A stretch of DNA of 64,000 bases, taken from NCBI GenBank assembly GCA_040767965.1, contig JAXGNR010000004.1:384001-448000 (forward strand). Reading direction: 5' to 3'. Under the pieces are notes generated by a model. That model did not search any database, was not told the DNA's origin, and saw nothing but the letters and a program-made list of their open reading frames with translations. How positions within the stretch are numbered: the first letter of the stretch is position 1; each line of letters starts with the position of its first letter. The stretch is from Atribacterota bacterium (lineage in GTDB: Bacteria; Atribacterota; Phoenicimicrobiia; Phoenicimicrobiales; Stramentimicrobiaceae). Made by a program: the position numbers and the translations under genes. This document shows positions 13,470 to 43,404 of the stretch, in pieces.

Positions 13470-13539
13470 TATTAATAATCTGCTAATAAATACTGAAGAA
13501 AAGTTAAAATTCTTATTTTAATTAAAACAATTGAGGCAA

Positions 13540-18557: not shown

Positions 18558-18616
18558 TTGATAATTCATAGATATTTAAGTTATTATAGGTAAGTAATCA
18601 AGAAATATTAAAAAAA

Positions 18617-20525: not shown

Positions 20526-20598
20526 AAAATATATAGCCATTTGTCTGAAAAAAATAATTAAAATTTATTTAAAAAAGTAACATTATAAGAAAAGTAAA

Positions 20599-21763: not shown

Positions 21764-22015
21764 ATAAACAGTTCGAAGTAGTTATTCTTAAGCTATTAAC
21801 ACCCCTAATAGTTTTAGTTGTTTTTATAGTGAAGATTCAATAATGAATGTATTTATAAAAAATATTTATTTTAAGGTAAAATGAATAAAATATAAGGCAT
21901 AAGTGATAATGTGATAATAATCGAAGAGATAAGTGTATTTTTAATATTATCCTAATAATAATTAGATACAAATACAGTTTAAAGATATTTAAAAAATAAT
22001 GATAGGAAGTGATAT

Positions 22016-22235
22016 TTGAGAAATTACTATATAGAAAAAAATTTTATGCAGGTTTAAACAGATCTAAAAAAAGAAAATATTTAGAATTAAGAGCTTTTTC
22101 AGCAAGACAAACGAGAATCCAGTAATTATTCTTGGAAATCAAAGATCCGGGACTGCTGTTATTGATACATTACTGCGAAGTGTATTAATAAAAACCTTGC
22201 ATTGGATATATAGTTATCCATTTGTTATGAAATAG
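22016..22235 (+). pseudogene. Second sulfotransferase 5' remnant
   Basis: From 22113 reads ENPVIILGNQRSGTAVI (GxxRSGT 5'-PSB loop); upstream frame broken. Confidence 0.5.
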
Positions 22236-22337
22236 ATGGTTTGATATTGCAGAAAATAATTTAAGGATTCTGTTAAAAACATGTGTAGGCATTGCCAAAT
22301 ATTAAAAATATATTATTTTATTATCAAGAGAAAATAA

Positions 22338-23450: not shown

Positions 23451-23512
23451 CCATATATTAGTTATTTTAAATTAATCTACGGTTATAATCTAGTTAAAGT
23501 TAAAGGTATGAA

Positions 23513-24679
23513 ATGAAAAAAATTGTGATGTACACTACTAATCAGTTGTTTGGCGAAAGAAGGACTGGTGGAGTAAAAAGATTTTTAGAGTTATACGAAG
23601 GGATGAAGAATAATGATATTGATATTGATTTATTTTGCGGTGATACCCAGGAGGTTTTAGTAAAAAATAATATAAAAGCATATTCTCTTCAGAATGTCAA
23701 AAAGGGTAAAAATGTTTTTATTCCAACAGAATTAAAAATATTTATTAAAAATATAAATAAGATTAGAAAAATAAAAAAAATGAAGTATGATGCAATTATT
23801 ATTTTTGATGTTCCTACAGCCATAGGATTAAGTTTAATAGGAATTAAAAAAATTCAATTATTTATTCGTCAAGATTTAATTGAGTATAAAAAAATTACCA
23901 TAAGCAATAGAATAAAAAACAAATTACTTGCAAGTATATATTTATTTTTTGTTATGTTATGTGAAACAGTTTGTCTTATTAAAGCAAATAGAATATTTTT
24001 ACAATGCAAATATGATTATTATGCTCTAATAAATAGACATAGGTTAATAAAAAATAATATAGAAAAAAAATCAATAATTCAAATTAATAATGTTAATCCT
24101 TCATGGATTATTAATAAATCAAATTATACTTTAAACGATAGGATTGCTATACTTTTTAAAAAAAGTGATTTTTTAATTGGATTTATAGGAAACTTTAATA
24201 GTGACAGGAAAGGGCATAAGATATTCCTTGATGCGATGAGAAAACTTTTAGATAAAAAACATAAACTCAAAGCAGTTGTAATTGGAGATGGTAGACAATT
24301 ATTAAAATACAAAGAAAAATATAAAGGGTATCCCGAAATAATTTTTACAGGGCACTTAGATAATCCAATGCCTGTAATAAAAAAATGTAATTTAATAATT
24401 GTACCATCAATAGCTGATTCTTGTCCAAATACAGTAATGGAGGCACTGTATAATAATGTACCAGTTATTGGTGCCCGATCTGGAGGTATACCAGAAATAC
24501 TTAAAAATGAAGAATGTCTATTTAATCCAAATTCTTTATCTATACAAAAAAAAATAGAATATTACATGGATAAAACTAACCTAAGGAAGTTGAAAGATCA
24601 ACTAAAGATTAGAAAAGAAGAATTAGAGTTCGACTGGCCTTTGGCAATTATAAAACAAATACAATTGACATACAAGTAA
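23513..24679 (+). CDS. GT4 glycosyltransferase
   Basis: TGGVKR, RKGH, DSCPNTVMEA, SGGIPE. Confidence 0.8.
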   Translation: MKKIVMYTTNQLFGERRTGGVKRFLELYEGMKNNDIDIDLFCGDTQEVLVKNNIKAYSLQNVKKGKNVFIPTELKIFIKNINKIRKIKKMKYDAIIIFDVPTAIGLSLIGIKKIQLFIRQDLIEYKKITISNRIKNKLLASIYLFFVMLCETVCLIKANRIFLQCKYDYYALINRHRLIKNNIEKKSIIQINNVNPSWIINKSNYTLNDRIAILFKKSDFLIGFIGNFNSDRKGHKIFLDAMRKLLDKKHKLKAVVIGDGRQLLKYKEKYKGYPEIIFTGHLDNPMPVIKKCNLIIVPSIADSCPNTVMEALYNNVPVIGARSGGIPEILKNEECLFNPNSLSIQKKIEYYMDKTNLRKLKDQLKIRKEELEFDWPLAIIKQIQLTYK

Positions 24680-24886
24680 TAAAATGTCTTATCTTTTATT
24701 GGGCAATTACTTGGAAATAAATTATAAAACTTAAAACCCTGAAACCAAGACTACTAGCATTAAATAATTAAATTCAAATAAAATACAAAATAATTGAATG
24801 AATTTGAGAATGACTACTAAAAATATACAAATTAACAGTATAATTAATGTAATAATGTTTCTTTATATACTAAATATTTATTTATT

Positions 24887-26278
24887 GAGTGTGTTCTATA
24901 TTTTATTTAAAAGTAGAATAAGTTAATTCAAATAATAACTTGAAATAGACCTCAAGAACACCATAATAATATAGATAAAACTCTAAAAAATTAAGGAGGA
25001 TAAATTCAAGATGACCCAATTAAATATATGTCTATTTTGCAAGCGGAATTAAATAAGGACGGAGATTTCCTAAAGGAAATGGTAAAAAGTATTATGCAAC
25101 AGCTAATGGAAGAAGAAAGAGATGCTCAGGTGGGAAGTATTGTCTCATAAAAGAGACAATGCCAAAAAAGGCCAATCGTAACGGCTATAAGCCCCGCTCT
25201 TTGAATACCAGAGTCGGTAATCTACTTTTGGCCAAACCCCAGATCAGAGAATTTGCCTTTCAGACTCAATTATTTGAAAACTACCAAGAAGCGAAAAGGC
25301 CTACTTGCCAGTATCTGCCAGATGGTTACCGATGGAGTCTCCTGCTTGGGTCAAAGATTGTCGCTAAACTATCACCGGATCTCATCTATTCCAAATCTAC
25401 AGTCAGCAGAATCACCCAGGAACTGGATCCCAGATAACAAAATGGCAACAAGCACAATTACAAGATTATTACCTCTATCTATTTACCGATGCCCTCTACT
25501 TTTTTATCCGGGTAAACCACCGGGTCATCTCCTGCCCGTTATTAATTACCATAGGTGTAGACAAGAACGGATACGGAAGGTTCTGGGTATTGATATCGCC
25601 CTTTGAGAGAAAGCTACCAAAGCTATCTACAATCACTTTAACCAAATCAAAGACAGGGGATTAAAATACGTAGATTTAACGATCTCCGATGACCATAAGG
25701 GACTCATCAAAGCTCAGCAGGAAGTATTCCCCAATACACCCCATCAGCGCTGTATCTGTCATTTTATGCGTAATGTCCTATCTTGTGTTCCCTATAAGGA
25801 AAAAGCAAAACTGGCCGATTATCTCAAGCAGATCTTTAATTCTCCCACCAGAACAGATGGCTGTTACTGTAGCTAAGATGATTGCCGAAAATACCAGACC
25901 AGTTATCATAAAGTAAGTGAAATGTTACAAGAGGAACTGGAATTTACTCTGACTTACCTTAACTACTCCAAACATCACCGTCGCAAGATTAGAACCGCAA
26001 TTTGGTGGAAGGGGTAATCAATAAAGACCTAAAACAACGCTCCAGGGTAGTTGGCATTTTCCCGAACCAGGAATCCTGCCTAAGATATGCCTCCTGAGAC
26101 TCATGGAGATTGATGAGGAATGGCAGACCGGTAGAAGGTATCTGAAGATAAATAAAGAGGATCAATTCCTACAAAGAGATGATCCTCTCTTAGAAGAAAT
26201 AAAACAAATGAAAGAAGGAGTCAAGGCTCAGGAGGAATTGGTGGCTACTTAATTTTACAGAAAAATTGGGATTGACTC
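24887..26278 (+). mobile_element. IS256-family insertion sequence, 1392 bp
   Basis: Imperfect IRs GAGTGTGTTCTATATTTT.../...AAAAATTGGGATTGACTC (18/28 matches); 8-bp TSD TATTTATT at 24879-24886 and 26279-26286. Confidence 0.9.
25011..26252 (+). pseudogene. IS256 transposase, multiply frameshifted
   Basis: RNGYKPRSLNTRVG; RGLKYVDLTISDDHKGL...FP...QRCICHFMRN; GIFPNQES. Confidence 0.88.
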
Positions 26279-26704
26279 TATTTATTATTCTACTGAGAAT
26301 ATCATAATCATATAAGTAATGCTATTAATTATATGATTATTGGATTAATTTACTTTTAAAAAAAATAAATTAATATTTAATTTTTATTTTGCTTGCATTC
26401 TTACTATTTATTATAACATGTAGAATATTTATTTTTTTGCTATAAACCAAAATATTGCACTGGTTAGAGCCAGGATTGTGATATTGTTATTTATATTGAT
26501 AATTTCTTTGATAAATTATTTGGATAAAAAAGAAAAAATAATATGTTTAATGAGATATTTTGAAAAGTCACAATTTGAATCAAACAGATACTTTTTTATT
26601 GACTTCAGATTTTGCTACAATTGCCGGTTTCGGGAATCAATTGTCTAATGCGAATACAGAAAATAGAAGATCTAAATTAGAAAAATATCAGCTGGAGCTT
26701 AAAA

Positions 26705-27610
26705 TTGATAAATATTTTTATCAAAATCTTAAGAAAACCAAAAATTATTGTTTTGTATCTTTTGTCAACCAAAATATCAAGAATCATTCCAGATATTATT
26801 TTTTTAAAAACCAAATTTAGACTAAGGATAGGTAAAACTCTAAACTTGTCAAATCCAAAAACTTTTAATGAGAAACTACAATGGCTGAAGTTATATGATA
26901 GAAATCCCGAATACATAGATTTGGTTGACAAATATAAAGTTCGTGATTATATTGCTAAAACAATTGGTGGTGAGTATCTTATACCTTTACTAGGAGTATA
27001 TAATAGCTTTGAAGAAATAAACTTTAATACACTACCTGATCAATTTGTACTAAAACCAACTCATACATCTGGAGATATATTTATTTGTAGAGACAATTCA
27101 GGAATAGACTATAATGATTTGAAGAAAAAAATTAATAAATGGTTGAAACGGGATTATTATTTTCTATCAAGAGAATGGTGCTATAAAAACATTAAACCAA
27201 GAATAATTTGTGAAAAATATCTTAAAAATGAAAGAAAACAAGTTCCTGATGATTATAAAGTCCTTTGTTTTAACGGTCAGCCAAAACTAATACAAATTCA
27301 TGTTAATAGATATAGTAAAGATTATTCTAAAGTTATTTATGACTTAGACTGGAATAAAACTACAATTTCAATAGGGACTTCAGATTTTAACTTAAATATA
27401 CCAAAACCAAAAAATTATAAATCAATGTTAGAATTTTCTAAAATATTAGCAAAAGATATTCCTTTTGCGCGAATAGATTTTTATGAAGAATATAATAAGT
27501 TATATTTTGGAGAAATCACTTTATACCCAGCGTCAGGATTTAATCCTCTTCAAAAACACGAAGACAATATTAAATTAGGTAGCTGGATTGAACTGCCTTT
27601 TGACAAATGA
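26705..27610 (+). CDS. TupA-like ATP-grasp amidoligase (second copy)
   Basis: NLSNPKTFNEKLQWLKLY, VDKYKVRDY, DYKVLCFNG, RIDFY, FGEITLYP. Confidence 0.88.
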   Translation: MINIFIKILRKPKIIVLYLLSTKISRIIPDIIFLKTKFRLRIGKTLNLSNPKTFNEKLQWLKLYDRNPEYIDLVDKYKVRDYIAKTIGGEYLIPLLGVYNSFEEINFNTLPDQFVLKPTHTSGDIFICRDNSGIDYNDLKKKINKWLKRDYYFLSREWCYKNIKPRIICEKYLKNERKQVPDDYKVLCFNGQPKLIQIHVNRYSKDYSKVIYDLDWNKTTISIGTSDFNLNIPKPKNYKSMLEFSKILAKDIPFARIDFYEEYNKLYFGEITLYPASGFNPLQKHEDNIKLGSWIELPFDK

Positions 27611-27632
27611 AATATTTAGAAAGGAACTTAGT

Positions 27633-28763
27633 GTGGAAATATTAATTGCTGGTGATTTAGTACCAACAAATTCAAATATGAATTTATTTAAAAATGCAGA
27701 TGTAAAAAATTTGCTTGGCAAGGAATTATTGTCTCTATGGAATTCTTCAGATGCAAGGATATTTAATTTGGAAGCGCCTTTAGTTGATACAGAAAGTCCA
27801 ATTGATAAATTTGGTCCGAATCTAATTATGCCTACTGAAACAATAAAAGGAATTAAAGGCCTAAACCCAACTTTAATTACACTGGCAAATAATCATATAC
27901 TTGATCAGATGGAACAAGGATTATTCTCTACACAGAGTATTCTAAATGAAGCAGGTATACCATTTATCGGAGCAGGCAAAAATCTACACGAAGCAAGCAA
28001 ACCATTTATAATAAAAAAAGATGGTTATAAAATAGGCATATATGCGTGTGCAGAAAATGAATTTTCAATTGCAACAGAAAAGAATGCCGGAGCAAATCCT
28101 TTTGATCCTCTGGAAAGCTTGGATCATATTAGTGAGTTAAAACAAAAAAGTGATTATGTTGTTGTTCTTTACCATGGGGGAAAAGAATACTACCGTTATC
28201 CTTCTCCCTATTTGCAGAAAGTATGTAGAAAAATGATAGATAAAGGTGCGAATATAGTTATATGTCAGCATAGTCACTGTATTGGATGTTTTGAGGAATA
28301 CAATAATGCAACAATTATTTATGGACAGGGAAATTTTATTTTCAATAAGCAAGATAATGAATTTTGGAATAATAGTTTAATAATAAGAATATATTTTAAT
28401 AAAAACATAAAAATTGAATATATTCCGATACTTGAAGAGAAGCCAGGAATACGGATGGCAAAAGAAAACGAATCAAAAGATATACTGTCTAAGTTTTATA
28501 ATCGTTCAAAAGAAATATTACAGGATGGTTTTATTGAAGAACAATATCAATTATTTGCAGAGAAAAATATTGATAATTATTTAAGAGCTTTTTCTGGAAA
28601 GAATAAGTGGCTTTCAAGAATTGATAGATTTATTTTAAAAGGATATCTCTTGAAAAGTAAATATAATAAAAAGAAATTGTTAGCTTTGCAAAATTTTATT
28701 GAATGTGAAGCACATAGAGAACTATTAAGTAAGGGGATAAATAATTATATAAATAGGAAATAA
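27633..28763 (+). CDS. CapA/PgsA-family metallophosphoesterase
   Basis: IAGD, NLEAP, LANNHILD, YHGGKE, HSHC, YGQGNF. Confidence 0.85.
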   Translation: MEILIAGDLVPTNSNMNLFKNADVKNLLGKELLSLWNSSDARIFNLEAPLVDTESPIDKFGPNLIMPTETIKGIKGLNPTLITLANNHILDQMEQGLFSTQSILNEAGIPFIGAGKNLHEASKPFIIKKDGYKIGIYACAENEFSIATEKNAGANPFDPLESLDHISELKQKSDYVVVLYHGGKEYYRYPSPYLQKVCRKMIDKGANIVICQHSHCIGCFEEYNNATIIYGQGNFIFNKQDNEFWNNSLIIRIYFNKNIKIEYIPILEEKPGIRMAKENESKDILSKFYNRSKEILQDGFIEEQYQLFAEKNIDNYLRAFSGKNKWLSRIDRFILKGYLLKSKYNKKKLLALQNFIECEAHRELLSKGINNYINRK

Positions 28764-28767
28764 AAAA

Positions 28768-29895
28768 ATGAAAATATTGCATGTTTCTTGCGGAGGTCTG
28801 GGCAATGGCGGTGTTCAAAATATCATTATGAATATCTGCCTTAATAATAAAGATATTTATTTTGATATAATATTATTTACCAGTGAAAAAAGATATTATG
28901 ATGATGAATTTAAGAGACTGGGAGGAAAGATATTTAGAATTCCTAATTATGAAGGAAAAAATAAATATAGAAAGAAAATAGATTTCTATATCAGGTTTTT
29001 TCGTATTTTTTTTGGAACTTATAAAATAATAAAGAATGAAGGATCATATGATGTTATACATTGTCATAATAATTTGGAGAGTGGTATTTGCAATCTTGTA
29101 GCCTATTTAACTGGAATAAAGATACGCATTTCACACTCTCATACCTCCAATAATAGATTTCAAAAAAGAAATATTATCACATATATTTATAAAAGATTTT
29201 TGCAAAGATTAGTTAATTGTTTTAGCAATGTTAAAATAGGTTGTTCCAAGAAGGCTTTTCTTAGTTTATTTGGAGATAAATATTTATATAAAGCCAATTC
29301 ATTAATTGTTCATAATGCTGTAGATTTATCAATATTTCACAGAACACAATCTAATGTAAAATTAAACACTGAAATCAATATTGTACATATTGGAAGATAC
29401 TCCGATAATAAGAATCAGATGTTTCTTATTGAGGTTTTCTCGTATTTATTAAAAGAGTGCCCTAAAAGTGTTCTTCAATTAATAGGCTTTGGAGAAGAAT
29501 ACAAAGGAAAGCTTCTTAAAAGAACAAATCATTTGCGTATAAAATCTAGGGTAAAATTTTTACCATCAGATTCGAATAAAATAGAAATCCTTGAAAATGC
29601 TGATTTATTTATTTTTCCCTCTATATCAGAAGGTTTCCCTATTGCGTTGCTTGAAGCCCAGGCTATGGAAGTACCTTGTTTGGTTTCAGATTCAATTCCC
29701 AAAGAAATAGATTGTGGATTATGTAAATTTTTGCCATTATCGGGGAAACATGAATTGTGGGTTAAAGAAGCAATCAGCATAATTAACCATAATTTCCCTT
29801 TACAATTGAATAAAGAAAAACTTATTTCTTTTAATATAAATAAGTATGCTGAAAAAATAAAAAAAGTATACGATGGCAGTAAATATAAAAAGTGA
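28768..29895 (+). CDS. GT4 glycosyltransferase (EpsF-like)
   Basis: GNGGVQ, RISHSH, HIGR...KNQ, EGFPIALLEAQ. Confidence 0.88.
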   Translation: MKILHVSCGGLGNGGVQNIIMNICLNNKDIYFDIILFTSEKRYYDDEFKRLGGKIFRIPNYEGKNKYRKKIDFYIRFFRIFFGTYKIIKNEGSYDVIHCHNNLESGICNLVAYLTGIKIRISHSHTSNNRFQKRNIITYIYKRFLQRLVNCFSNVKIGCSKKAFLSLFGDKYLYKANSLIVHNAVDLSIFHRTQSNVKLNTEINIVHIGRYSDNKNQMFLIEVFSYLLKECPKSVLQLIGFGEEYKGKLLKRTNHLRIKSRVKFLPSDSNKIEILENADLFIFPSISEGFPIALLEAQAMEVPCLVSDSIPKEIDCGLCKFLPLSGKHELWVKEAISIINHNFPLQLNKEKLISFNINKYAEKIKKVYDGSKYKK

Positions 29896-30203
29896 GATTT
29901 GTTTTGTACTAAAAAGACAAACATTGTTTGTAATAATTTAAATTCGTGGGAATGTGCAATAATTTTAAGAATTTAGAAATATATTTACTGTCTATTTTAG
30001 AAAGTAATAGGCAAAGATATTATGTCTTTATTAATGATATTGATTATGAAATCTACTTGTTCAAATATTAATAAGGTAAAAATAATTTTAGTAGATAATA
30101 ATCAATAAGTTTTGATGAGGATGTTAAAAAGAACTTTAAGTAAACAAAAAAATAACTAAAGCTATTTTTTAATAATCTATTTTAGAGGTTAGGTGTTTTT
30201 ATC

Positions 30204-30400
30204 TTGGTAGAAAATAAAAAAAGGATTGCTATTATAGTTCCAAACCTTAATGGTGGTGGTGTGGAAAGAGCTGCATAAAATATTATCAATGTATCTTTCT
30301 AAAGATAAATATGAAAAATATATAATTGTGTTCGATAATAGTGATATAGAATATGAATACGAAGAGACATTTGGGGCCTTTATTAATTTAGATTTAAGAG
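30204..30400 (+). pseudogene. 5' stub of a GT4 glycosyltransferase
   Basis: SD then TTG 30204: MVENKKRIAIIVPNLNGGGVERAA*, continuing in a shifted frame as ILSMYLSKDKYEKYIIVFD. Confidence 0.65.
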
Positions 30401-30530
30401 CAAAGATAATATTATTAATAAAACTTTCAAGAATGAGTGTTATAATTTCTGTAAATATTACAAAACTATTACAAAACTATGATATATTAAAATTTAAATT
30501 ATTTTTTATAATTATAATAAAAAGGTGCTC

Positions 30531-31499
30531 ATGAAAAAAATAATTGTAACCGGTTCAGCTGGCTTTATTGGAAGCAAAGTTACCGAAAAGCTATTAGAAG
30601 AAAATAATGACGTTATTGGAATTGACAATCTAAATAATTATTATGATATAAGGTTAAAACAATGGCGTTTGGAAATATTAAAGAAATATGAAAATTTTAC
30701 TTTTTATAAGGTGGATATTGAAAATATCAACATTTTAAGGGAAATATTTAAAAACCAAAGGATAGAAGTGGTGATCAATCTTGCAGCTAGAGCGGGAGTT
30801 CGGTATAGCATAGAGAACCCTTTACTGTACCATAGTACCAATATTGGTGGTAATTTAAATTTACTGGAAATGTGTAAAGAATTCAAAATAAAAAAGTATA
30901 TTTTAGCTTCTACATCTTCTTTGTATGCCGGGCAACCTACTCCATTTATTGAAGACTTGTCTGCGAGTAATCCTATTTCTCCATATGCTGCTACTAAAAA
31001 AGCTGCTGAGATTATGGCATATACCTATCATTATCTATATGGTGTTGATGTCAGTATTGTTCGCTACTTTACAGTATATGGTCCAGCAGGCCGTCCGGAT
31101 ATGAGTCCATTTCGTTTTGTTAAATGGGTATTAGAAGGAACACCTTTAACTATTTATGGAGATGGCAGTCAGGAAAGAGACTTTACTTATGTGGATGATA
31201 TTGCCGAGGGAACAGTTAGAGCAATAAAACCGGTTGGATATGAAGTTATCAATTTAGGGAGTAGTGAACCATATAAACTCTCAGATATGATTAAAATAAT
31301 TGAAAAATATACTGGGAAAAAAGCTAGTTATAAATATGAAGGCTTTCATAAGACAGATATGAAATCTACCTGGGCAGATATCAATAAAGCTAAAAATATT
31401 CTTGACTGGAGACCACAGGTTGACCTTGATGAAGGAATTAAAAGAACTGTAAATTGGACAAAAGATAATAACGGTTGGGTTTTAAAAATAAAAATATAA
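30531..31499 (+). CDS. UDP-glucuronate 4-epimerase-type SDR
   Basis: TGSAGFIG, AARAGVRYS, YAATKK, YGPAGRPDM. Confidence 0.85.
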   Translation: MKKIIVTGSAGFIGSKVTEKLLEENNDVIGIDNLNNYYDIRLKQWRLEILKKYENFTFYKVDIENINILREIFKNQRIEVVINLAARAGVRYSIENPLLYHSTNIGGNLNLLEMCKEFKIKKYILASTSSLYAGQPTPFIEDLSASNPISPYAATKKAAEIMAYTYHYLYGVDVSIVRYFTVYGPAGRPDMSPFRFVKWVLEGTPLTIYGDGSQERDFTYVDDIAEGTVRAIKPVGYEVINLGSSEPYKLSDMIKIIEKYTGKKASYKYEGFHKTDMKSTWADINKAKNILDWRPQVDLDEGIKRTVNWTKDNNGWVLKIKI

Positions 31500-31522
31500 T
31501 TTAACAAAAAGGACATGTTGAC

Positions 31523-32662
31523 TTGAGAAGATCTTATATTAAGAGAATTATTAATAATATTTACTCTTATTATGAACCTTTTGATAGCCTTGGAATAATA
31601 AACATATACAGAAAATTCAAAGATCGTAAAGAGGTGACGCCTGAAAACAAGAAATTAGACAGTGCCACACCAGTAAAAATATTATGGCCTCCTGATGTAC
31701 GTAAACCCAGAGTAGGTTTAGTAAAATCCGAAAAAGGATGCAATGCTTATTGGCCTAAATTTGAACGATTCCTCAAAACAAATGATATAAATTACAGTTA
31801 TTTTGATATTAAATCATCTGATTTTATTTTAGAAATAAAAAAATATGATGTCATTATATGGAGAACGCCTCCTGAATATGCAGACCAATGGGAAGCCGCT
31901 GATAAAATAGAATTTATGGAAGAGTATCTTAACAAGATTGTAATGCCTCCCAGGCAGTCATTATGGATGTATGAAGACAAAGTAAGAATGCAGTGGCTGC
32001 TTCAGATAAATAATCTTCCAGTTATTAAAACATTTATATCATTTTCGAAAGAAGAAACCAAAAATTATATTGAAACTTGCCACTATCCTTTTTTATCAAA
32101 AGACAAGACATCCTCAAGTTCAAATGGAGTTTTTCTGGTAAAAAATAAAAGACAGGCAAGAAAGCTGTGGAGAAAAATATTTTTTAGAGGCTTAAAATTA
32201 GAAAATTCTTACGTAAAACAAAAAGATTATGTTTTTTTTCAGGAATATGTACCTAACAAAGGTTTTGATCTTCGTGTAATTATGATTGGTGATTCATATT
32301 TTGGTTATTATAGATATCCATCAAAAAAAGATTTTAGAGCTTCAGGTTCAGGAATAGTTATAAAAGAAAGTATTCCTAAAAAAGTATTGAATTTAGCAAA
32401 AAAAACAAGAGAATGTTTACCAAAATCATACCTATTGGCAGTAGATTTTTTACAGGATACCCGTGATGATAAATTTTATATAATTGAAATTTCCATCTTT
32501 ACACAGGTATTATCTTCGGAAAACTTAGTTGTCGATGGAATTCCCGGAAGATATATTGAGCAGAATGGAGATTTTGTTTTTGAACCAGGACGTTTTTGGA
32601 TACAAGAACTTATGATGAAAGAATTAATGAAAGATTGGATTGCTAAAAATACAGTAAAATAA
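31523..32662 (+). CDS. RimK-like ATP-grasp ligase
   Basis: YEDK, SSSNGVFLV, FQEYV...FDLRV, DFRASGSG, AVDF, IIEIS. Confidence 0.75.
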   Translation: MRRSYIKRIINNIYSYYEPFDSLGIINIYRKFKDRKEVTPENKKLDSATPVKILWPPDVRKPRVGLVKSEKGCNAYWPKFERFLKTNDINYSYFDIKSSDFILEIKKYDVIIWRTPPEYADQWEAADKIEFMEEYLNKIVMPPRQSLWMYEDKVRMQWLLQINNLPVIKTFISFSKEETKNYIETCHYPFLSKDKTSSSSNGVFLVKNKRQARKLWRKIFFRGLKLENSYVKQKDYVFFQEYVPNKGFDLRVIMIGDSYFGYYRYPSKKDFRASGSGIVIKESIPKKVLNLAKKTRECLPKSYLLAVDFLQDTRDDKFYIIEISIFTQVLSSENLVVDGIPGRYIEQNGDFVFEPGRFWIQELMMKELMKDWIAKNTVK

Positions 32663-32901
32663 TATATAGAGAATAAAAAATAAGAGGTTATGCATAAGAC
32701 AAGCAATAAAAATTAAGATATTATTAATATTCTAATTTATAGTTAATGAGGTTTAGCTATAAGGAATGAAAACAGAAGTAAAAAAAGTGCATACATCTTG
32801 CCATTTTTCAACAATAAATTATTAGGCCAAATAGATTACCATACAATTTAAGTGAAAACTATTTATAAAACTTAAGACTTAAGAAAAGAGTTAATAAAAA
32901 A

Positions 32902-33084
32902 GTGCACATTTTATACTTACATCAATATTTCAATACCCCTGAAGAAGGTGGTGAAACAAGATCTTATGAGTTTGCTAGAAAATTAATTAAACTTGGGCAT
33001 AAAGTAACAATAGTGACAAGTTCTAATAAAACAGATAATTCAGTGAAAATAATGGAAGGTATAAATTTTGTTACACATAAATAA
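32902..33084 (+). pseudogene. 5' stub of a WbuB-like GT4
   Basis: HILYLHQYFNTPEEGGETRSYEFARKL..GHKVTIVTS, truncated at 60 aa. Confidence 0.75.
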
Positions 33085-33184
33085 GCTTTTTAATAACTTG
33101 AAATTAACAAAATTATATAAACTTACAAGTATTTTTTTAGGTTGGTTCCCTGCAACAACCAGATGCTTAAAAAGGAAGTTTTAA

Positions 33185-34339
33185 TTGATTATCATTTATT
33201 ATTTTTCTATATTATTATTGTCTTATATTTACCTTGGTTATCCTCTTTCATTATACTCTCTGAGCCTATTCAAAAAATACAATATTATTTATTTAGTTGG
33301 TTACTTACCCTCAGTATCAATTATTATCGCTGCCTATAATGAAGAAAAAGTTATTGAAGATAAAATCAAAAATACTTTAGAGCTTGATTACCCCAAAGAA
33401 AAGCTTGAAATTATTGTATTTTCTGATTTCTCTAAAGATAACACTGATGATATTGTGAAGAGGTATGAAAAAGTTGGTGTTAAACTCTTAAGAATTGAAG
33501 GGAGAAAAGGAAAAACTTTTTGCCAGAACAGAGCAGTAGAACATGCTAAGGGAGAAATCATACTATTTTCTGATGCTAACAGTATGTATGAGAGAGATGC
33601 TGTGAGAAAACTGGTTAGAAACTTTGCAGATGAAAAAGTTGGCTGTGTCTCAGGAGAATTAAAATATATTAACAGTGCTAATCAGAAAGATGAAAATAGT
33701 GAAGGATTTTACTGGAAATACGAGAAGATGATTAAAAGACTGGAGAGCAAAGTTTCTTCTCTTGTTGGGGCTAATGGGGCAATCTATGCTGTGAGAAAAA
33801 AATTGTATGCTCCTTTAGAGGATTTTGCAATCAGTGACTTTGCTGAACCCCTTATGATATTGATCAAAGGTTTCAGGACGGTTTATGAGCCGGAAGCTAT
33901 TGCAATTGAGAAAAATAATGATTCGTTCAGAGATTCATATCGCAGAAGAGTTAGGATAGTCACCAGGACTTTTAATAATATTATTAACTCCAGTGAAATA
34001 TTGGAATTGTTTAATCCAATTAAATATGGCTGGTATTCAATTCAATTAATTAGTCATAAATTTTTAAGATGGTTTACCGGATTGTATATGTTTATATTCT
34101 TACTACTTAATATAATTCTAGTTAATGAGAGCTGGGTTTATGCAATTATATTGATTTTGCAACTATTATTCTATCTTGTCGCATTTTTAGGTTATTTAGA
34201 CCAAAAATATTCCCAAAAAAGAGAAGTTATATTGTTGAATATTATTTTTTATTTTTGTATTTCAAATATTGCAATGCTCAATGGCATTATTAATGCTTTA
34301 TCAAAAAATAAAATTATAACCTGGGATACAAAAAGATAA
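33185..34339 (+). CDS. Membrane-bound GT2 glycosyltransferase
   Basis: YLGYP, IIIAAYNEE, FSDAN, GANGAIYA, RRVRI; C-terminal TMs. Confidence 0.88.
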   Translation: MIIIYYFSILLLSYIYLGYPLSLYSLSLFKKYNIIYLVGYLPSVSIIIAAYNEEKVIEDKIKNTLELDYPKEKLEIIVFSDFSKDNTDDIVKRYEKVGVKLLRIEGRKGKTFCQNRAVEHAKGEIILFSDANSMYERDAVRKLVRNFADEKVGCVSGELKYINSANQKDENSEGFYWKYEKMIKRLESKVSSLVGANGAIYAVRKKLYAPLEDFAISDFAEPLMILIKGFRTVYEPEAIAIEKNNDSFRDSYRRRVRIVTRTFNNIINSSEILELFNPIKYGWYSIQLISHKFLRWFTGLYMFIFLLLNIILVNESWVYAIILILQLLFYLVAFLGYLDQKYSQKREVILLNIIFYFCISNIAMLNGIINALSKNKIITWDTKR

Positions 34340-35115
34340 TAAACTTGTATTTAGAATTGCTATTTCTTCTTTTTCAAATTAATAAAAATGAGATTAAGAG
34401 AAAAGCAATTGAAAATAAGTTATTTTAAAAAATAGAACAATTTCACTCTTTTAATGACCATATATATTGAAGAAATAAACGGGTATTTATTTGAGTAGAT
34501 ATTTAAATAGTTATATTGATATTGAAATTTAAAAACCGATATTATATCAGATACTCAAGGCTATGGATTAACTTTAATTTCAAGAATAACAAGAAAATAC
34601 CAGGATATTGTTTCGGTTACCAGGAATTAACAATATTGGTTTAGGGTAGATGAGATGAATTGTATATTAGGACCAATACTTCCCGATGAGCTTAAGACTA
34701 TTGGTTAACTGTATTGAAGATAGTAGTGAAAAATTAAAGAACAATGAAAACGGTGAATATGATAATGGGATAAAATTGTCTGATAAGATTATTTTAAACT
34801 GTGAGATGATTGCCAATGGCGGATTTACCCCAGCAACTTCGGGATACTGGTAACACCGTTGTTTCAGGTTTGTGGCTTACACTGGCAACCTCTATTTCTC
34901 AGATATAAAAGAAAAATATTTAAGATTAATCGATAGTTTATATTATAAAAGTTTACAATTATTTTTTGTGTTATATTTATGATATAAATTATTAATTGAT
35001 TTTACAGCTATAATAAAGAATTTATAAATAATATATAATACAATAAACGCTAGGGCTGGAATCGCTAAGTCTTTTTGCATATTTTAATTTTGTTGTTTTT
35101 ATCGAAAGGATTTAA

Positions 35116-36084
35116 ATGCATTTATTGTTATTGGTTTTTATTTTTTCAAGTATTGTTAGTTTTTTTAGTTTTCCAATTATAATTCCTCGTTTAAAAAAAG
35201 CGAGAATTACCGGGCGAAATATGAATAGTGTCAATCAAGAAGAAATTCCAGAGATGGGTGGCTTGGTAATAGTAGCTGGATTTTCCAGTGGAATTATTCT
35301 AATAATTTTTTTAAAAACATTCTTCAAATTATTGCCTGATGTAAATTTAGTATCATTGCTTGCCTGTCTTTCAACTGTATTAATTGTTGCTTTGATTGGA
35401 GTTGTTGATGATCTAATTTCTATAAGGCAGATTATAAAGGCATTTATGCCAATATTTTCTGCCCTACCATTAGTGGCAATCGAGATTGGAGATACCATTA
35501 TGAGAGTCCCATTTATTGGTAGAATTAATTTTGGCATTATATACCCCCTGCTTTTAATACCATTGGGCGTTACTGGTGCAACTAATGCATTTAATATGCT
35601 GGCAGGATTTAATGGATTAGAGGTAGGTTTAGGGATAGTATGCATGATAACTGTCTCTATTATTGCTTATATTACAGGCAGCATGACTGCACTGGCAATT
35701 TCATTACCATGTCTGGGTGCTTTGCTTGCTGCTATTTACTATAACTGGTATCCGGCTAAGATATTAGTAGGTGATATTGGTACTTTATGCATGGGGGCAG
35801 TTCTGGCAACATGTGTTATTGTAGGTGATTTTGAAACAGCAGGTGTTATCTTGATAATACCATTTGTATTTGAATTTATTATTAAGGCATTACATAAATT
35901 TCCCACCCAGGATTGGTGGGGAGTGTACAAAGAAGGAAAATTATATTGCCCGGAAAATGGCCCGGTAAGTTTACCTCAAATTATAATGAAAGTCAGTGGG
36001 GGAATCAAAGAAAAAAATCTGGTAATATTTTTGATAGGTTTCGAGACATTTTTTGGATTGATTGCGATAATGATTTATTTGTAG
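35116..36084 (+). CDS. Archaeal/eukaryotic-type UDP-GlcNAc:polyprenyl-P GlcNAc-1-P transferase (AglH/DPAGT1-like GPT)
   Basis: GRNMN...IPEMGG, GVVDD, NAFNMLAGFNGLEVG, YNWYPAKILVGDIGT; lacks the WecA HHH motif. Confidence 0.8.
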   Translation: MHLLLLVFIFSSIVSFFSFPIIIPRLKKARITGRNMNSVNQEEIPEMGGLVIVAGFSSGIILIIFLKTFFKLLPDVNLVSLLACLSTVLIVALIGVVDDLISIRQIIKAFMPIFSALPLVAIEIGDTIMRVPFIGRINFGIIYPLLLIPLGVTGATNAFNMLAGFNGLEVGLGIVCMITVSIIAYITGSMTALAISLPCLGALLAAIYYNWYPAKILVGDIGTLCMGAVLATCVIVGDFETAGVILIIPFVFEFIIKALHKFPTQDWWGVYKEGKLYCPENGPVSLPQIIMKVSGGIKEKNLVIFLIGFETFFGLIAIMIYL

Positions 36085-36817
36085 GTTGAAAAAATCTGGT
36101 CTGTTAATGATATTTTAACAATCTTTTTTTCCAAAAACCAATTCTGTCTACCAATTATTTTAAAAAAACTCTCTTAAATTCACCATCTGCTTTATACTTC
36201 TCTCTCTCAAGAAAAAAGAGGGAAGTAAAGAATAAGAACAGTCTCTCTTTTAGTGGAATAAAAATAGAATAAAAAACCCCCATCTTCAGAGTGGATACAT
36301 TAAAAAGAGAAGTAATTTGAAATATTACTATAAATTAAATAAATGATTTATAATTTTAAGTTGATTACAATTTTTGACTTAGTATGATAATTATAATTAT
36401 CATGATATATTCATATCAATGCAATAAATGATTCGCTATATTGTGAAATTATATTATCCAAAAATATTCGGTTTAGCATCATATTAGATGAAGGTAATTT
36501 TATAAAATTAGAATATGAAAAGAAAAAAAGAAGAAATAATAGAAGCAGGCTATTAGCAAGCTATTACAGGAAATGATTGAATATTCTTTTGGTAAAGAAA
36601 GCGAGTAAGAATAAAATCCTCCCCTTCTCCTAGATTAAGAATAATCTGTTTGAGTGAAAGATTCATTTAATATAGTAATCATTAATCATTTTAATTAAAT
36701 ACATTAGATAATGTTGAGATTAGTGAATTACATGTATATACTATATTAAACATATTAATACTAAATGAATATGCTAATAATAATATAATATATATGGATA
36801 TTTGCAAGAGGAACTTT

Positions 36818-37969
36818 ATGAGAATACTAATTGTAGGTGCCGGGCCAATTGGCTGTTATACAGGGCAATTATTAAAAAAAATTGGATATGAGCCTATTTT
36901 GCTGGAAGAACATTCCAGTGTGGGGAAGCCGGTGCAATGTGCTGGAATTGTATCTTCAAAATTAATAAAAAATATTGAATCTTTTATAACCGAAGAATCG
37001 ATTACAAGCTATATTAACAGTTTTATTATTAATACTCCCTGGACAGATGAGTTTTCCATTAATATCCCTGGAATTGCCTGTGTTTTAAATAGAGAAAAAT
37101 TTGATTTAGACTTGAGTAAAGGACTGGAGATACATTTTGGGAAACGTATTACTAAAATAGAAAAAAAAGATTCTGTTTATTATATTTCTACAAAGCAAGG
37201 GGAATTATTTGAAACGGATATTTTGATTGGAGCTGATGGGCCTGATTCAATTGTCAGGAATTATCTGCTGGCTAATTTTAAAGGTGATAAAAATAAAGAT
37301 TACCGCCTTAAAATTGATTACTATTTTGGCATGCAATATCAGATAAAGTTAAATGATTCTTATCCTGGAATTGTTAATAATTCAATACAGGTATATTTTG
37401 ATGAAAAGACGCCCTTTTTTATTTGGATAGTTTCCGAAAATAGTAAATCAATAAGGATTGGTTCTGTTGGGAAAACTGCAGAAAGTACTAAGAAATCTTT
37501 AGATGATTATCTTGAAAGAAAAAAAATAACAGGAGAGTTTACTGATGTTATTGCTGGAAAAATAGCACTTGGGAATATCCCCACCTATTTTGACAATATA
37601 GCACTAGTAGGTGATGCTGCCTGCCAGGTAAAACCATTAACTGGGGGAGGTCTCTCTTATGGCCTGCAATGCGTTCAAACACTGGCTTCCTGTATAGAAA
37701 AAAATGAACTTGATAAATATGAACAGAAGTGGAAAAAAAAATTTGGGAAAGAAATTATCTTTGGGTTAAAAGCAAGAAAATATTACGAAACCATGAATGT
37801 TAAGCATAAAAAAGAAATTTTTAATGTTTTTAAAAATAATCACAGTTTTATTGAAAAAACAATAGATTATGATAATCATTCTACCTTATTTTTTGAAGCT
37901 TTTAAAAATAAGCAGATATTAATAGAAGCAGGGAAAATTATCACTTATTATTTAAAAAAAGGAATCTAA
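36818..37969 (+). CDS. Geranylgeranyl reductase-family flavoprotein
   Basis: GAGPIG, GKPVQCAG, REKFD, IGADG, LVGDAACQVKPLTGGG; GAGG precedes ATG 36818. Confidence 0.8.
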   Translation: MRILIVGAGPIGCYTGQLLKKIGYEPILLEEHSSVGKPVQCAGIVSSKLIKNIESFITEESITSYINSFIINTPWTDEFSINIPGIACVLNREKFDLDLSKGLEIHFGKRITKIEKKDSVYYISTKQGELFETDILIGADGPDSIVRNYLLANFKGDKNKDYRLKIDYYFGMQYQIKLNDSYPGIVNNSIQVYFDEKTPFFIWIVSENSKSIRIGSVGKTAESTKKSLDDYLERKKITGEFTDVIAGKIALGNIPTYFDNIALVGDAACQVKPLTGGGLSYGLQCVQTLASCIEKNELDKYEQKWKKKFGKEIIFGLKARKYYETMNVKHKKEIFNVFKNNHSFIEKTIDYDNHSTLFFEAFKNKQILIEAGKIITYYLKKGI

Positions 37970-42465: not shown

Positions 42466-43404
42466 TTGAAATATTTATTGGTGGCATTAATAGCTTTTTT
42501 TGTTTCTTATTTGCTTACTCCTTTTATTGCCCAGGTGGGAAAAAAGCAAAACTTTGTTGATAATCCAGGATACCGGAAAATACATCGCGATGCAATTCCT
42601 AATCTGGGTGGAATTGTAATATTTTTTGGTTTTTTGTTGAGTATTCTTTTTATAATCCCAATCCAGGGAGTAGTTAAAGGGTTGCTGGCAGGTAGTGTCG
42701 TTATTCTGCTTTTAGGGGTAATTGATGATATCGCTGATTTAAAGCCAAGTTATAAGTTTATAATTCAACTGGTAGCAGCTTTTCTTGTTATTGGATACCA
42801 TTATGACCTGATAAATCAGTTTATAAAAGAAGAATTGGGATTTTTAAATATCAGTGGATATTTGCTTTACCCGCTATTGTTGTTTTGGATTGCAGGTGTG
42901 ACAAACTCTGTAAATCTGATTGATGGCCTGGATGGCCTTGCCTGTGGTGTTTCAATAATATCCCTTGGAACTTTTTTCATAATGGGTCTCGCAATAAAGG
43001 AAGGTTTTGAGATATATAATCTACTTAATATTGCTCTTTTTGGTAGCATGTTAGCTTTTTTCCGTTATAACTTTTATCCTGCTCAAATATTTTTAGGAGA
43101 TTCAGGCAGCACTTTTGCCGGTTTTACTATAGCTTCAATTGGATCAGTATGGGTAATATCATCAGGAAAAGTATTTTTTTTCCTGATCCCGCTACTTATT
43201 CTAGCTTTGCCAGTTGGCGATACCGTTTTTGCTATCCTGAGAAGAATTAAAAACAAACAGCCTATATTTCAAGGAGATCAGGGGCATTTGCACCACAGAC
43301 TTTTAGATCGTGGTATTTCTCATCGTAATGTGGTATTGATATTACTAGGCATAACTTTTTGCTGTTGTTTATTGGCATTGTTTTTATTCTATAGTATTTA
43401 TTAA
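42466..43404 (+). CDS. wecA: WecA/TagO undecaprenyl-phosphate GlcNAc-1-P transferase
   Basis: D.P..RKIH...PNLGG, GVIDD, NLIDGLDGL, FLGDSGS, DQGHLHHRL. Confidence 0.9.
   Translation: MKYLLVALIAFFVSYLLTPFIAQVGKKQNFVDNPGYRKIHRDAIPNLGGIVIFFGFLLSILFIIPIQGVVKGLLAGSVVILLLGVIDDIADLKPSYKFIIQLVAAFLVIGYHYDLINQFIKEELGFLNISGYLLYPLLLFWIAGVTNSVNLIDGLDGLACGVSIISLGTFFIMGLAIKEGFEIYNLLNIALFGSMLAFFRYNFYPAQIFLGDSGSTFAGFTIASIGSVWVISSGKVFFFLIPLLILALPVGDTVFAILRRIKNKQPIFQGDQGHLHHRLLDRGISHRNVVLILLGITFCCCLLALFLFYSIY

Follow-up and report, generated by a model that had tools for sequence, protein, structure and literature searches.

The 64-kb stretch of Atribacterota DNA analysed here (the window) encodes a polyprenyl-phosphate HexNAc-1-phosphate transferase of the GPT/Alg7/AglH type, which is neither a WecA nor a MraY, and, downstream on the same strand, a genuine flavoprotein of the geranylgeranyl reductase (GGR) family. 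We propose that the GPT primes a surface glycan and that the GGR tailors its carrier lipid, an explanation that, taken as a whole, we regard as evenly poised between right and wrong. A reductase-tailored carrier lipid in an Atribacterota bacterium is plausible. Even without the reductase link, the GPT type regarded as eukaryotic or archaeal has an old bacterial branch carrying at least eight bacterial phylum labels. The features discussed below are collected in Table 1.

Table 1. Features of the window, with coordinates counted from its first nucleotide
Feature	Position	Strand	Basis or remark
PglK/MsbA-like ABC transporter, candidate flippase for lipid-linked glycans	8504..10312	+	NF050066
Low-GC (0.27-0.29) glycan island	13531..34339	+	GT4s, GT2s, TupA-like, RimK-like ATP-grasp enzymes, PGA_cap, epimerases
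GtrA-like protein	18617..19030	+	Pfam
PMT_2-type GT-C	19017..20525	+	Pfam
GT2	20810..21763	+	Pfam
NAD-dependent sugar-nucleotide epimerase/dehydratase	30525..31499	+	PF01370
Membrane GT2, PgaC/NodC-like, 384 aa	33185..34339	+	Pfam, NCBIfam; recurrent GPT neighbour
Conserved leader with putative promoter and RBS GAAAGG	34990..35115	+	Just upstream of GPT; function putative
GPT/AglH-type polyprenyl-phosphate HexNAc-1-phosphate transferase	35116..36084	+	322 aa; predicted from sequence and fold
AT-rich GPT-GGR spacer, 733 bp	36085..36817		All ORFs shorter than 60 aa
GGR-family FAD-dependent reductase	36818..37969	+	383 aa; ORF opens at 36794
WecA-like transferase (comparison gene)	42466..43404	+	TIGR02380, HLHH, PDB match order

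A GPT-type transferase distinct from WecA and MraY

DPAGT1, known as Alg7 in yeast, is GPT, the UDP-GlcNAc:dolichyl-phosphate GlcNAc-1-P transferase. The PNPT superfamily to which it belongs is marked by three catalytic motifs of acidic and polar residues, DDxx[DNS], N..N...G.[ND]GL and xGD, with roles assigned from the literature on DPAGT1 and MraY; HHH is a loop motif of MraY, and HxHH one of WecA. The protein encoded at 35116 belongs to this superfamily by profile, by motifs and by its polytopic helical-bundle fold. It scores 114.9 bits (E 4.6e-33) with PF00953 (Glycos_transf_4), for which the Pfam gathering score is 27, and it carries DDLIS at residue 98, NAFNMLAGFNGL at residue 157 and a VGD ending at D220. 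Residues D98, D99, N157, N160 and D220 are invariant in an alignment of 18 sequences (A2), and D98, D99, K108, N160 and D220 are aligned with residues of DPAGT1.

The first-pass annotation had named IPEMGG, two further motifs and the lack of HHH as signatures of the GPT clade. All of these are borne out: IPEMGG occupies residues 44-49, NMLAGFNGLEVG residues 160-171 and YNWYPAKILVGD residues 209-220, and a motif search of the protein found neither HHH nor HxHH. Comparison with the PDB by phmmer placed DPAGT1 (E 1.8e-22) ahead of MraY (E 1.2e-9). The AlphaFold2 model (pLDDT 90.4, pTM 0.90) gave the same order in Foldseek, with TMq of 0.85-0.87 to DPAGT1 and 0.67-0.79 to MraY, and all 38 matches at E ≤ 0.001 were chains of one or the other. 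The curated models for the sister families were not reached at their cut-offs, namely TIGR02380 for WecA (28.5 bits, cut-off 326.05), TIGR00445 for MraY (48.2 bits, cut-off 192.05) and NF053644 for archaeal MraY (54.4, cut-off 450); no curated NCBIfam model for AglH/Alg7 matched at its cut-off. Many close homologues are named 'UDP-N-acetylglucosamine--dolichyl-phosphate N-acetylglucosaminephosphotransferase' by a source labelled JGI.

The WecA-like transferase at 42466, from which the annotation had set the GPT apart, served as a control. The two proteins are 28% identical and do indeed differ: the WecA-like protein has the reverse PDB order (MraY E 1.1e-16, DPAGT1 E 3.2e-10), and only it carries HLHH, at residue 274, in addition to NSVNLIDGLDGL. 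Its best model is TIGR02380 (122.4 bits, under the 326 cut-off). A minus-strand ORF overlapping the GPT (35235-35645) was rejected as a gene, its apparent conservation mirroring that of the GPT. The proposed reaction of the GPT is the transfer of a HexNAc-1-phosphate, very probably GlcNAc-1-P, onto a polyprenyl phosphate, with a UDP-sugar as the donor.

A GGR-family flavoprotein downstream of the GPT

Members of the GGR family share the FAD motifs GxGxxG and GDAA..TGGG, an active-site Cys in PVxC(G/A)G and a substrate-site motif YxWxFP. The assignment of the downstream gene to this family holds, as sequence, motifs and fold agree. The start at 36818 (M9 of the ORF 36794-37969) has AGAGGA just before it and agrees with the 383-aa form in the protein database. 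Among NCBIfam models TIGR02032, 'geranylgeranyl reductase family', fits best (E 7.7e-39), but its 134.1 bits fall short of the 158.8 cut-off; the best PDB match by sequence is 3oz2 (E 7.3e-10). In the comparison with 3oz2, both FAD motifs find their counterparts and the Cys of PVQCAG is aligned with that of PVRCGE. An alignment of 20 sequences (A4) shows no variation in GxGxxG, C41, W203 or the GDAA..TGGG block. At the substrate site FIWIVS stands opposite YIWVFP of 3oz2; A4 retains F201 and W203 throughout, but not the F-P pair. The model (pLDDT 89.7) has 3oz2 as its top Foldseek match (TMq 0.77), followed by the Sulfolobus GGR entries (0.73-0.74; 3atq and 4opt at 0.74), whereas other flavoenzymes reach 0.57-0.69. 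Identity to the solved GGRs is 15-18%. Since long branches dominate the tree of the GGRs, no claim of orthology is based on it.

The GPT in an old bacterial branch of a family whose other members are archaeal

The GPT tree was built as an unrooted sample of the 80 best hits of a genome scan seeded with an 18-sequence alignment. In this tree the Atribacterota GPTs are monophyletic (9 rows, SH-aLRT 97) and lie inside a 41-row clade (SH-aLRT 97) in which 35 rows are labelled Bacteria and 2 Archaea, the other 4 being without a label. This larger clade has Micrarchaeota as its sister group and a nested position among the Altiarchaeota. The nearest two Atribacterota loci have GPTs 79-89% identical to that of the window and the other six 56-63%; among archaeal MAGs, those of Altiarchaeota, Micrarchaeota and further groups hold relatives at 43-56%. 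MreD, a PBP2-RodA fusion, RNase E/G and an Omp85-like protein, all encoded in the window, mark the host as a bacterium, and its nearest named relatives are Atribacterota.

The first-pass annotation had suggested acquisition from archaea. A recent acquisition has to be abandoned for the GPT, which sits in a monophyletic Atribacterota group within a mostly bacterial clade, and we judge it very improbable that the GPT-GGR pair was lately acquired by horizontal transfer from an archaeon. Such an import could appeal to the 40 of the 80 best GPT loci that lie outside the bacterial clade with archaeal labels, to the feature-based atlas neighbours of the GGR, which are mainly archaeal clusters, and to the GC content of the glycan island, which is below that of its flanks. 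However, the Atribacterota GPTs are nested among those of other bacteria, and the best archaeal-labelled GPT is only about 55% identical, far from the values of the two nearest Atribacterota loci. Homologues of the GGR at 43-63% identity are numerous, the few with a named organism being from Atribacterota, and no archaeal locus has an adjacent GPT and GGR. The GPT is instead an old gene of Atribacterota, inherited vertically, and its branch is a bacterial one in a family that is archaeal elsewhere. An ancient inter-domain transfer is possible, with a direction that an unrooted sample does not reveal.

Gene order around GPT genes

We compared the neighbourhoods of the GPT genes in the 80 loci. 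The pairing of GPT and GGR was found in no Atribacterota-clade locus besides the window (0/8 in the flanks, with at least 1 kb of downstream sequence in only four of them and at least 2 kb in two); none of the four assessable loci has it. It was found in three loci of other bacteria, L007, L008 and L009. These three are the only GGR matches anywhere in the bacterial loci, all downstream of the GPT, and they make up 3/21 of the bacterial loci outside Atribacterota for which 2 kb or more of downstream sequence is available. The gene order is GPT-IVP-GGR in L007 and GPT-DUF218-GGR in L008 and L009, the GGR being on the GPT strand; in L008 and L009 the GPT, DUF218 and GGR frames overlap, and their surroundings are of a housekeeping kind, not a glycan cluster. 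Their GPTs belong to the clade of the window's GPT (54-57% identity). Their GGRs score 208, 193 and 204 bits with TIGR02032, above its cut-off, and are 27-28% identical to that of the window, which does not support a claim of orthology. Four relatives with 70-73% GPT identity may carry a GGR homologue in the same genome. Taken together, gene order gives weak evidence for a functional pairing of GPT and GGR.

Isoprenoid genes accompany the archaeal relatives. In Micrarchaeota, HMG-CoA reductase is encoded within 1.9 kb upstream of the GPT in 20/22 loci, the remaining two having less than 0.8 kb of upstream sequence, and in the Altiarchaeota-like clade a CrtI-like flavoprotein follows the GPT directly in 8/12 rows. 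DUF92 proteins may belong to the VTE6-type prenyl-phosphate kinases.

The GPT and the GGR of the window are on the same strand, as the annotation had noted, and the distance of about 730 bp measures 733 bp from the start at 36818. In L002, the closest relative, where the GPT is 89% identical, only the leader is conserved out of the 777-bp gap upstream of the GPT, and homology to the window ends exactly at the GPT stop codon, beyond which L002 has 8.3 kb of small paired ORFs. No remnants of DUF218, IVP or the downstream genes of L002 were found in the spacer. A simple terminator scan of the spacer, uninformative in itself, gave no terminator-like site, and promoter-like sites (37 against 26.8 ± 4.9 in shuffles) were not clearly enriched and equally uninformative. 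Rfam at gathering scores and ARAGORN gave nothing in the window. Because of the length of the spacer and the conserved leader, from which the GPT would be transcribed on its own, co-transcription of the two genes is doubtful.

The glycan island

Upstream genes of the variable island recur beside GPT genes elsewhere. Homologues of the GT2 at 33185 adjoin the GPT in L002 (65% identity) and L032 (39%) and are some 4 kb distant from it in L020 (40%), and homologues of the epimerase at 30525 (57-64%) are directly beside the GPT in the Atribacterota loci L010 and L019. A PMT_2 gene adjoins the GPT in L063, and a fusion protein of PMT_2 and GPT exists (P0389). A hand count of genes at most two away from the GPT, in the 38 of 40 bacterial-clade loci with an indexable GPT, found GT4 in 12 and epimerases in 8, besides Wzy, Wzz, Wzx and ABC-2 genes. 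In our explanation the GPT would prime a surface glycan made by the island, including this GT2, the epimerase and the GT4s. The ABC transporter at 8504 (380 bits with the PglK model NF050066, cut-off 1000) may serve the same pathway.

The carrier lipid and competing explanations

A saturated alpha unit is the defining trait of dolichol. The first-pass annotation had raised the possibility of a dolichol-like carrier. The term 'dolichol-like' is too strong, as GGRs are not known to saturate the alpha unit. Archaeal GGRs are described as reducing the omega and internal isoprene units, and a Haloferax GGR mutant as keeping alpha-saturation (PMC5088576, PMC10821996), so the GGR of the window is not an obvious maker of dolichol's alpha-saturated bond. 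The Haloferax enzyme is described as required for saturated dolichol phosphate (PMC10821996). In our explanation the GGR would saturate at least one isoprene unit, either in the polyprenyl carrier itself or in a precursor of it, and the GPT would act on a partly saturated carrier; we put the chance of this step at somewhat below even. A GGR acting on the general polyprenyl pool would supply the same lipid to MraY and WecA, which argues against the separate route that the annotation had envisaged.

Alternatively, the two genes may be unrelated neighbours, the GPT working on unsaturated undecaprenyl phosphate for a capsule, an O-antigen-like or an S-layer glycan, and the GGR acting on another isoprenoid and lying beside the GPT only through the border of the variable island. 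We take this seriously and would give it not quite an even chance. The adjacency could be incidental, since the GGR is at the island border and is the last plus-strand gene before a convergent gene. The missing GGR in the Atribacterota-clade loci, the homology break of L002 at the GPT stop codon, and the long spacer with a separate conserved leader all fit this alternative, as does the description of bacterial carriers as fully unsaturated (PMC5088576). It accounts poorly for L007-L009, where every GGR match among the bacterial loci is downstream of the GPT, twice with overlapping frames and outside glycan clusters, and for the isoprenoid genes flanking the archaeal GPT relatives; nor was a pathway for another GGR substrate seen among the genes of the 64-kb window. 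Alternatively again, the GPT could prime archaeal-style N-glycosylation with an AglB-type oligosaccharyltransferase encoded elsewhere in the genome. AglB/STT3 adjoins the GPT in L018, a Dehalococcoidia locus of the same GPT clade (TIGR04154 520 bits, cut-off 450), and in L014 and L021, also Dehalococcoidia, AglB homologues (46-48% identity) are encoded some 4-5 kb upstream of the GPT. However, in agreement with the annotation, a Pfam scan of 49 ORFs of the window found no STT3/AglB/PglB domain, and tblastn with an AglB from the bacterial loci found no match in the 64 kb. AglB occurs in only 3/80 loci, none of them in the Atribacterota clade, and the usual GPT neighbours are polysaccharide genes (Wzy, Wzz, ABC-2). 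We consider N-glycosylation unlikely. Nothing related to AglB in Dehalococcoidia was found among literature titles.

The pairing of GPT and GGR in a few other bacteria hints that some bacteria may use partly saturated carrier lipids. A broader reading, which we offer only tentatively and would lean against, is that GPT-type primers in archaea and bacteria travel with genes for making or tailoring the carrier lipid, and that some bacteria have a dedicated GGR. These could be the present Atribacterota lineage, an Aminicenantes MAG and the lineage of L008 and L009, and the GGR product might be a partly saturated, dolichol-like polyprenyl phosphate reserved for one glycan pathway. Saturated dolichol-type carriers are described as a hallmark of archaea and eukaryotes (PMC5088576). 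If true, a bacterial GPT-GGR module would contradict the rule of fully unsaturated bacterial carriers, blur the divide between the carriers of archaea and eukaryotes and those of bacteria, and bear on how the initial step of N-glycosylation evolved. A candidate for the archaeal polyprenol reductase would then be the CrtI-like flavoprotein encoded after the GPT in Altiarchaeota. The module would also supply candidate enzymes, open to expression, for saturating the carrier lipid, among them candidates for alpha-reduction in archaea, a step called unknown in PMC5088576. Titles and abstracts yielded no report of a bacterial GPT-GGR module; no paper was found on Atribacter and geranylgeranyl reductase, and Atribacter was absent from the papers found on dolichol, AglH or N-glycosylation.

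Comparison with known systems

Human DPAGT1 and yeast Alg7 are the best solved relatives of the GPT by sequence and fold. In the GPT the DD motif, K108, the N..N motif and the aspartate of VGD all have counterparts in DPAGT1, and the HHH of MraY is missing. The GPT is shorter, at 322 aa compared with some 408 aa, the identity is about 24%, and its cytoplasmic loop after TM9 is much reduced. The archaeal AglH proteins of Sulfolobus acidocaldarius and Methanococcus voltae are in its size class, and AglH is described as complementing yeast alg7 (PMC5222938). The GPT may be an orthologue of these proteins. Unlike the hosts of AglH, the present host is a diderm bacterium that also has MraY-type and WecA-type chemistry. 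Bacterial WecA and TagO belong to the same PNPT superfamily (PF00953) and likely have a similar role in priming glycan clusters, but the GPT lacks an HxHH motif and stays at 28.5 bits against 326 with TIGR02380.

The archaeal GGRs (Ta0516/3oz2, Sulfolobus 3atq and that of Haloferax) have FAD motifs and an active-site Cys that are kept in the GGR of the window, which differs in its 15-18% identity to the solved GGRs, its score under the TIGR02032 cut-off and FIWIVS in place of YIWVFP of 3oz2. The closest parallels in gene order are L007-L009, where a GPT is accompanied by a same-strand GGR as in the window. Their GGRs pass TIGR02032 whereas that of the window is below it, and the genes of L008 and L009 form an operon of overlapping frames, in contrast to the 733-bp spacer that separates the GPT and the GGR described here.

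Identity of the transferase and the reductase

The first-pass annotation had described a transferase of the GPT/AglH/DPAGT1 type (GPT) followed by a geranylgeranyl-reductase-family flavoprotein (GGR), and this observation was confirmed by motifs, family matches and the 733-bp spacing of the two genes on one strand. All the quoted GPT motifs lie in the open reading frame, from which HHH/HxHH is absent. GPT belongs to PF00953 (Pfam, 114.9 bits) and reaches the cut-off of no curated NCBIfam model (WecA, 28.5 vs 326; MraY, 48.2 vs 192). Against all PDB sequences, human DPAGT1 chains were the best match (E 1.8e-22) and MraY the next (1.2e-9). The WecA-like protein of the window, used as a control, gave the reverse order (MraY, 1.1e-16; DPAGT1, 3.2e-10), which upholds the proposed distinction between the two transferases. 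The confident AlphaFold2 model of GPT (pLDDT 90.4, built from 18 homologues) fits DPAGT1 (TMq 0.85-0.87) more closely than MraY (0.67-0.79), with D98/D99, K108, N160 and D220 aligned to D115/D116, K125, N185 and D252 of DPAGT1, which we take to be the Mg2+ and catalytic residues. Many close homologues carry the jgi pipeline label 'UDP-N-acetylglucosamine--dolichyl-phosphate N-acetylglucosaminephosphotransferase'. The assignment to the GPT type is solid, and we hold it to be very probably correct. Elsewhere in the window, the PNPT-like domain of a fusion protein matches PF00953 at 43 bits and is probably inactive because the DD, N..N and GD motifs are absent.

The best model for the second protein is TIGR02032 of the GGR family (E 7.7e-39; 134.1 bits, under the 158.8 cut-off), and Thermoplasma GGR (3oz2) is the best PDB match by sequence (E 7.3e-10) as well as by fold. 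Three segments have counterparts in the 3oz2 alignment: PVQCAG with its Cys, GDAA..TGGG, and FIWIVS, which stands opposite YIWVFP. In a 20-homologue alignment the Cys, the GDAA..TGGG block and F201 and W203 of FIWIVS are invariant, and the F-P pair of YIWVFP is not kept. The AlphaFold2 model (pLDDT 89.7) matches 3oz2 at TMq 0.77, Sulfolobus GGRs at 0.73-0.74 and other flavoenzymes at 0.57-0.69. Homologues at 43-63% identity are numerous (at least 120); the few named by organism are all Atribacterota among the matches listed, and in a feature-based atlas the neighbours are mostly archaeal GGR-like clusters. The annotated family was therefore accepted for this putative reductase. Its most likely start is 36818, an ATG with a good Shine-Dalgarno sequence in front of it and also the first codon of the 383-aa form in the database; this start leaves the 733-bp spacer, in which no ORF of at least 60 aa was found.

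The window has a low GC content (0.27-0.38) and is clearly bacterial, with MreD, a PBP2-RodA fusion, RNase E/G, an Omp85/TolB-like protein and ExbB/ExbD; among relatives with an organism name, those nearest to GPT and to GGR both belong to Atribacterota. The convergent gene directly after GGR encodes an unusual outer-membrane protein architecture. A nucleotide-sugar dehydrogenase has about 165 residues between its N-terminal domain (ending near 155) and its central domain (from 321), which suggests an insertion.

Coordinates of features in the window and in the GPT-matching genome loci (L numbers)
Feature	Location	Strand	Remarks
GPT	window 35116-36084	+	322 aa
GGR ORF	window 36794-37969	+	383 aa from 36818
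WecA-like protein	window 42466-43404	+	HLHH motif; TIGR02380 at 122 bits
TolB-like PD40 repeats, C-terminal region weakly BamA/Omp85-like	window 38019-41108	-	1029 aa
PNPT-like membrane domain (N-terminal) fused to WecG/TagA-type ManNAc transferase	window 44527-46161		544 aa
PBP2 (dimerisation and transpeptidase domains) fused to RodA/FtsW	window 46887-49826		979 aa; directly 3' of MreD
UDP-glucose/GDP-mannose dehydrogenase	window 6708-8369		553 aa
PRK07208-type FAD oxidoreductase, GtrA-like, PMT_2-type GT-C, GT2	window 17133-21763		oxidoreductase 566 bits, above cut-off
PMT_2-type GT-C	window 19017-20525		beside GtrA and GT2
AglB/STT3 oligosaccharyltransferase	L018:10217-12523	-	TIGR04154 at 520 bits, cut-off 450
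AglB/STT3 oligosaccharyltransferase	L014, about 4497-5810		
AglB/STT3 oligosaccharyltransferase	L021:4543-7146		
DUF218 (SanA/ElyC-like)	L008:10966-11688		between GPT and GGR
DUF218 (SanA/ElyC-like)	L009:1559-2284		between GPT and GGR
CrtI-like FAD protein	L016:2861-4207		likewise L015, L024, L025, L038, L042, L047, L058
HMG-CoA reductase arrangement	L044:1401-2639 with L044:4334-4945		likewise 19 further Micrarchaeota loci
Small ORFs 3' of GPT	L002:8743-17003		8.3 kb

Origin of the transferase

Of 1.84 billion cluster representatives searched exhaustively with HMMER, 224 matched GPT at E <=1e-30 and 1648 at E <=1e-10, and a scan across GTDB with a single genome for each species gave at least 599 pattern matches, at least 557 of them confirmed. 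The best 80 of these confirmed loci (L001-L080), the window GPT and the WecA-like outgroup made up the 82 rows of a quick IQ-TREE phylogeny with SH-aLRT support only, a very long outgroup branch and the submitters' own taxon labels. Atribacterota, including the window, form a 9-row clade (support 97) nested in a 41-row clade (support 97) of 35 Bacteria, 2 Archaea and 4 unlabelled rows, with labels including Aerophobetes, Aminicenantes, Chloroflexota/Dehalococcoidia, Thermotogota, Bipolaricaulota, Planctomycetota and Moorellales. The sister of the 41-row clade comprises 23 rows (support 95), 22 Micrarchaeota and one Altarchaeum, and Altiarchaeota-like rows are basal. Because the Atribacterota clade sits within a mostly bacterial one, the earlier suggestion of acquisition from archaea is rejected as a recent event. 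GPT has long been present in Atribacterota and in several other bacterial phyla, a conclusion limited by a sample of the 80 most query-like sequences, which lacks characterised AglH as well as eukaryotic Alg7 and gives no direction for any ancient transfer. The two archaeal labels inside the bacterial clade, L012 (Methanothrix harundinacea, with a Wzz-like neighbour) and L060 (a Thermoplasmatales MAG, with a Wzx-like flippase neighbour), may reflect mis-binning or gene transfer.

Neighbourhoods of the transferase

In the 38 of 40 bacterial-clade loci with an indexable GPT gene, the genes within two positions of GPT were counted by hand: 12 loci have a GT4 and 8 a sugar epimerase, and further neighbours are GT2, Wzy-like, Wzz, Wzx-like, ABC-2 and PAP2 genes. 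The typical Atribacterota cassette is epimerase, GT4 and GPT (L004, L005, L010, L019, L031). Homologues (57-64%) of the window epimerase at 30525 adjoin GPT in L010 and L019, and the membrane GT2 at 33185 has its counterpart beside GPT in L002 and L032. The simplest reading is that GPT primes a strain-variable surface glycan. A role in N-glycosylation is possible: among the best 80 loci, archaeal-type AglB adjoins GPT or lies no more than about 5 kb away on three Dehalococcoidia-labelled MAG contigs, with GT4, ABC-2 and PAP2 genes nearby. These loci resemble a bacterial N-glycosylation cluster of archaeal style, for which no relevant paper was found. In the window, as had been reported, no oligosaccharyltransferase was found. 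Its cluster with a PMT_2-type GT-C resembles three-component polyprenyl-phosphate-sugar glycosylation systems; PMT_2 is fused to a GPT of the window type in database protein P0389, and a PMT_2 gene adjoins GPT in L063.

In the Micrarchaeota clade, 20 of 22 loci have an HMG-CoA reductase gene on the strand of GPT and at most 1.9 kb upstream of it; in the other two, less than 0.8 kb of sequence is available on that side. In 16 loci a DUF92 membrane protein, of a family that presumably includes prenyl-phosphate kinases, is encoded at most 2.4 kb downstream, and a sugar nucleotidyltransferase is likewise encoded downstream. In the 12-row Altiarchaeota-like clade, 8 loci have directly 3' of GPT a CrtI/amine-oxidase-type FAD protein (436-449 aa), which falls under every curated NCBIfam cut-off and is possibly a polyprenol-modifying oxidoreductase. 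Each arrangement was probably inherited once. Taken with the GGR cases in bacteria, these arrangements show that isoprenoid or flavin-reductase genes are recurrent companions of the GPT family.

Pairing of the transferase with the reductase

The pairing recurs outside Atribacterota and is not demonstrably conserved within the phylum. A tblastn search with GGR left all 8 Atribacterota-clade loci without a match; only 4 of them have at least 1 kb and 2 at least 2 kb downstream. L002, the closest relative, with a GPT 89% identical, shares the upstream GT2 (65%) with the window, and homology in DNA and translation runs no further than the GPT stop codon. The next stretch of L002 has nothing but small ORFs of 50-110 aa, many in overlapping pairs on one strand and one matching DUF6290, and it looks like a toxin-antitoxin array. 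HepT, PemK, Gp49/HTH and HEPN genes flank GPT in L001, L007, L005 and L050. Immediately 5' of GPT, conservation with L002 is confined to about the last 125 bp; this leader holds a ribosome-binding site (GAAAGG) and a promoter-like sequence (TTTACA..ATAAAT), and its retention suggests that GPT has its own promoter. In four relatives with GPTs 70-73% identical, the longest contig has an identical length for GPT and for a reductase homologue (9065, 10789, 41691 and 313572 nt), which suggests a possible linkage in the window's sub-lineage.

Among the best 80 loci, 21 of the bacterial clade come from outside Atribacterota and extend 2 kb or more past GPT; in 3 of them GGR lies 3' of GPT, and these are the sole GGR matches anywhere in bacterial loci. 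In L008 and L009, GPT, a DUF218 gene and GGR (193 and 204 bits, above the cut-off) have overlapping reading frames amid amino-acid and propionate metabolism genes, outside any glycan cluster. ElyC has been linked to undecaprenyl-phosphate metabolism. In L007 (Aminicenantes), inside a glycan cluster, a small 23S-rRNA-IVP gene separates GPT from GGR (208 bits). With L023, which has no GGR, these loci form a 4-row group in the GPT tree; joined with a second one (three Aerophobetes rows and one labelled Methanothrix), it gives the sister group of the Atribacterota clade, 8 rows in all (joint node support 80). The pairing events thus number one to three rather than four independent ones. The three reductases are 27-28% identical to the window GGR, which scores 111-118 bits against them and 53-74 against four Micrarchaeota GGR-like genes, in a reductase tree with long branches throughout. 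No report of a bacterial GPT-GGR module was found in the literature.

Implications for the carrier lipid

Coupling of the reductase to the carrier of GPT is supported by the recurrence in other lineages and weakened by the lack of demonstrable synteny in the phylum, the long spacer and the known regiochemistry of GGR; we regard it as a tentative proposal, somewhat less probable than its absence. If GGR reduces the common polyprenyl pool, WecA-type and MraY-type enzymes would share the lipid, which speaks against the separate route suggested earlier. The dolichol-like carrier first envisaged is favoured by the recurrence as far as a saturated carrier is meant, and disfavoured by GGR regiochemistry as true dolichol. 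Bacterial polyisoprenols are described as fully unsaturated (PMC5088576), and a Haloferax GGR mutant as having lost saturated dolichol phosphate while keeping partial alpha-saturation (PMC10821996). The most that a GGR beside GPT would therefore argue for is a carrier saturated at the omega or internal units, not true dolichol.
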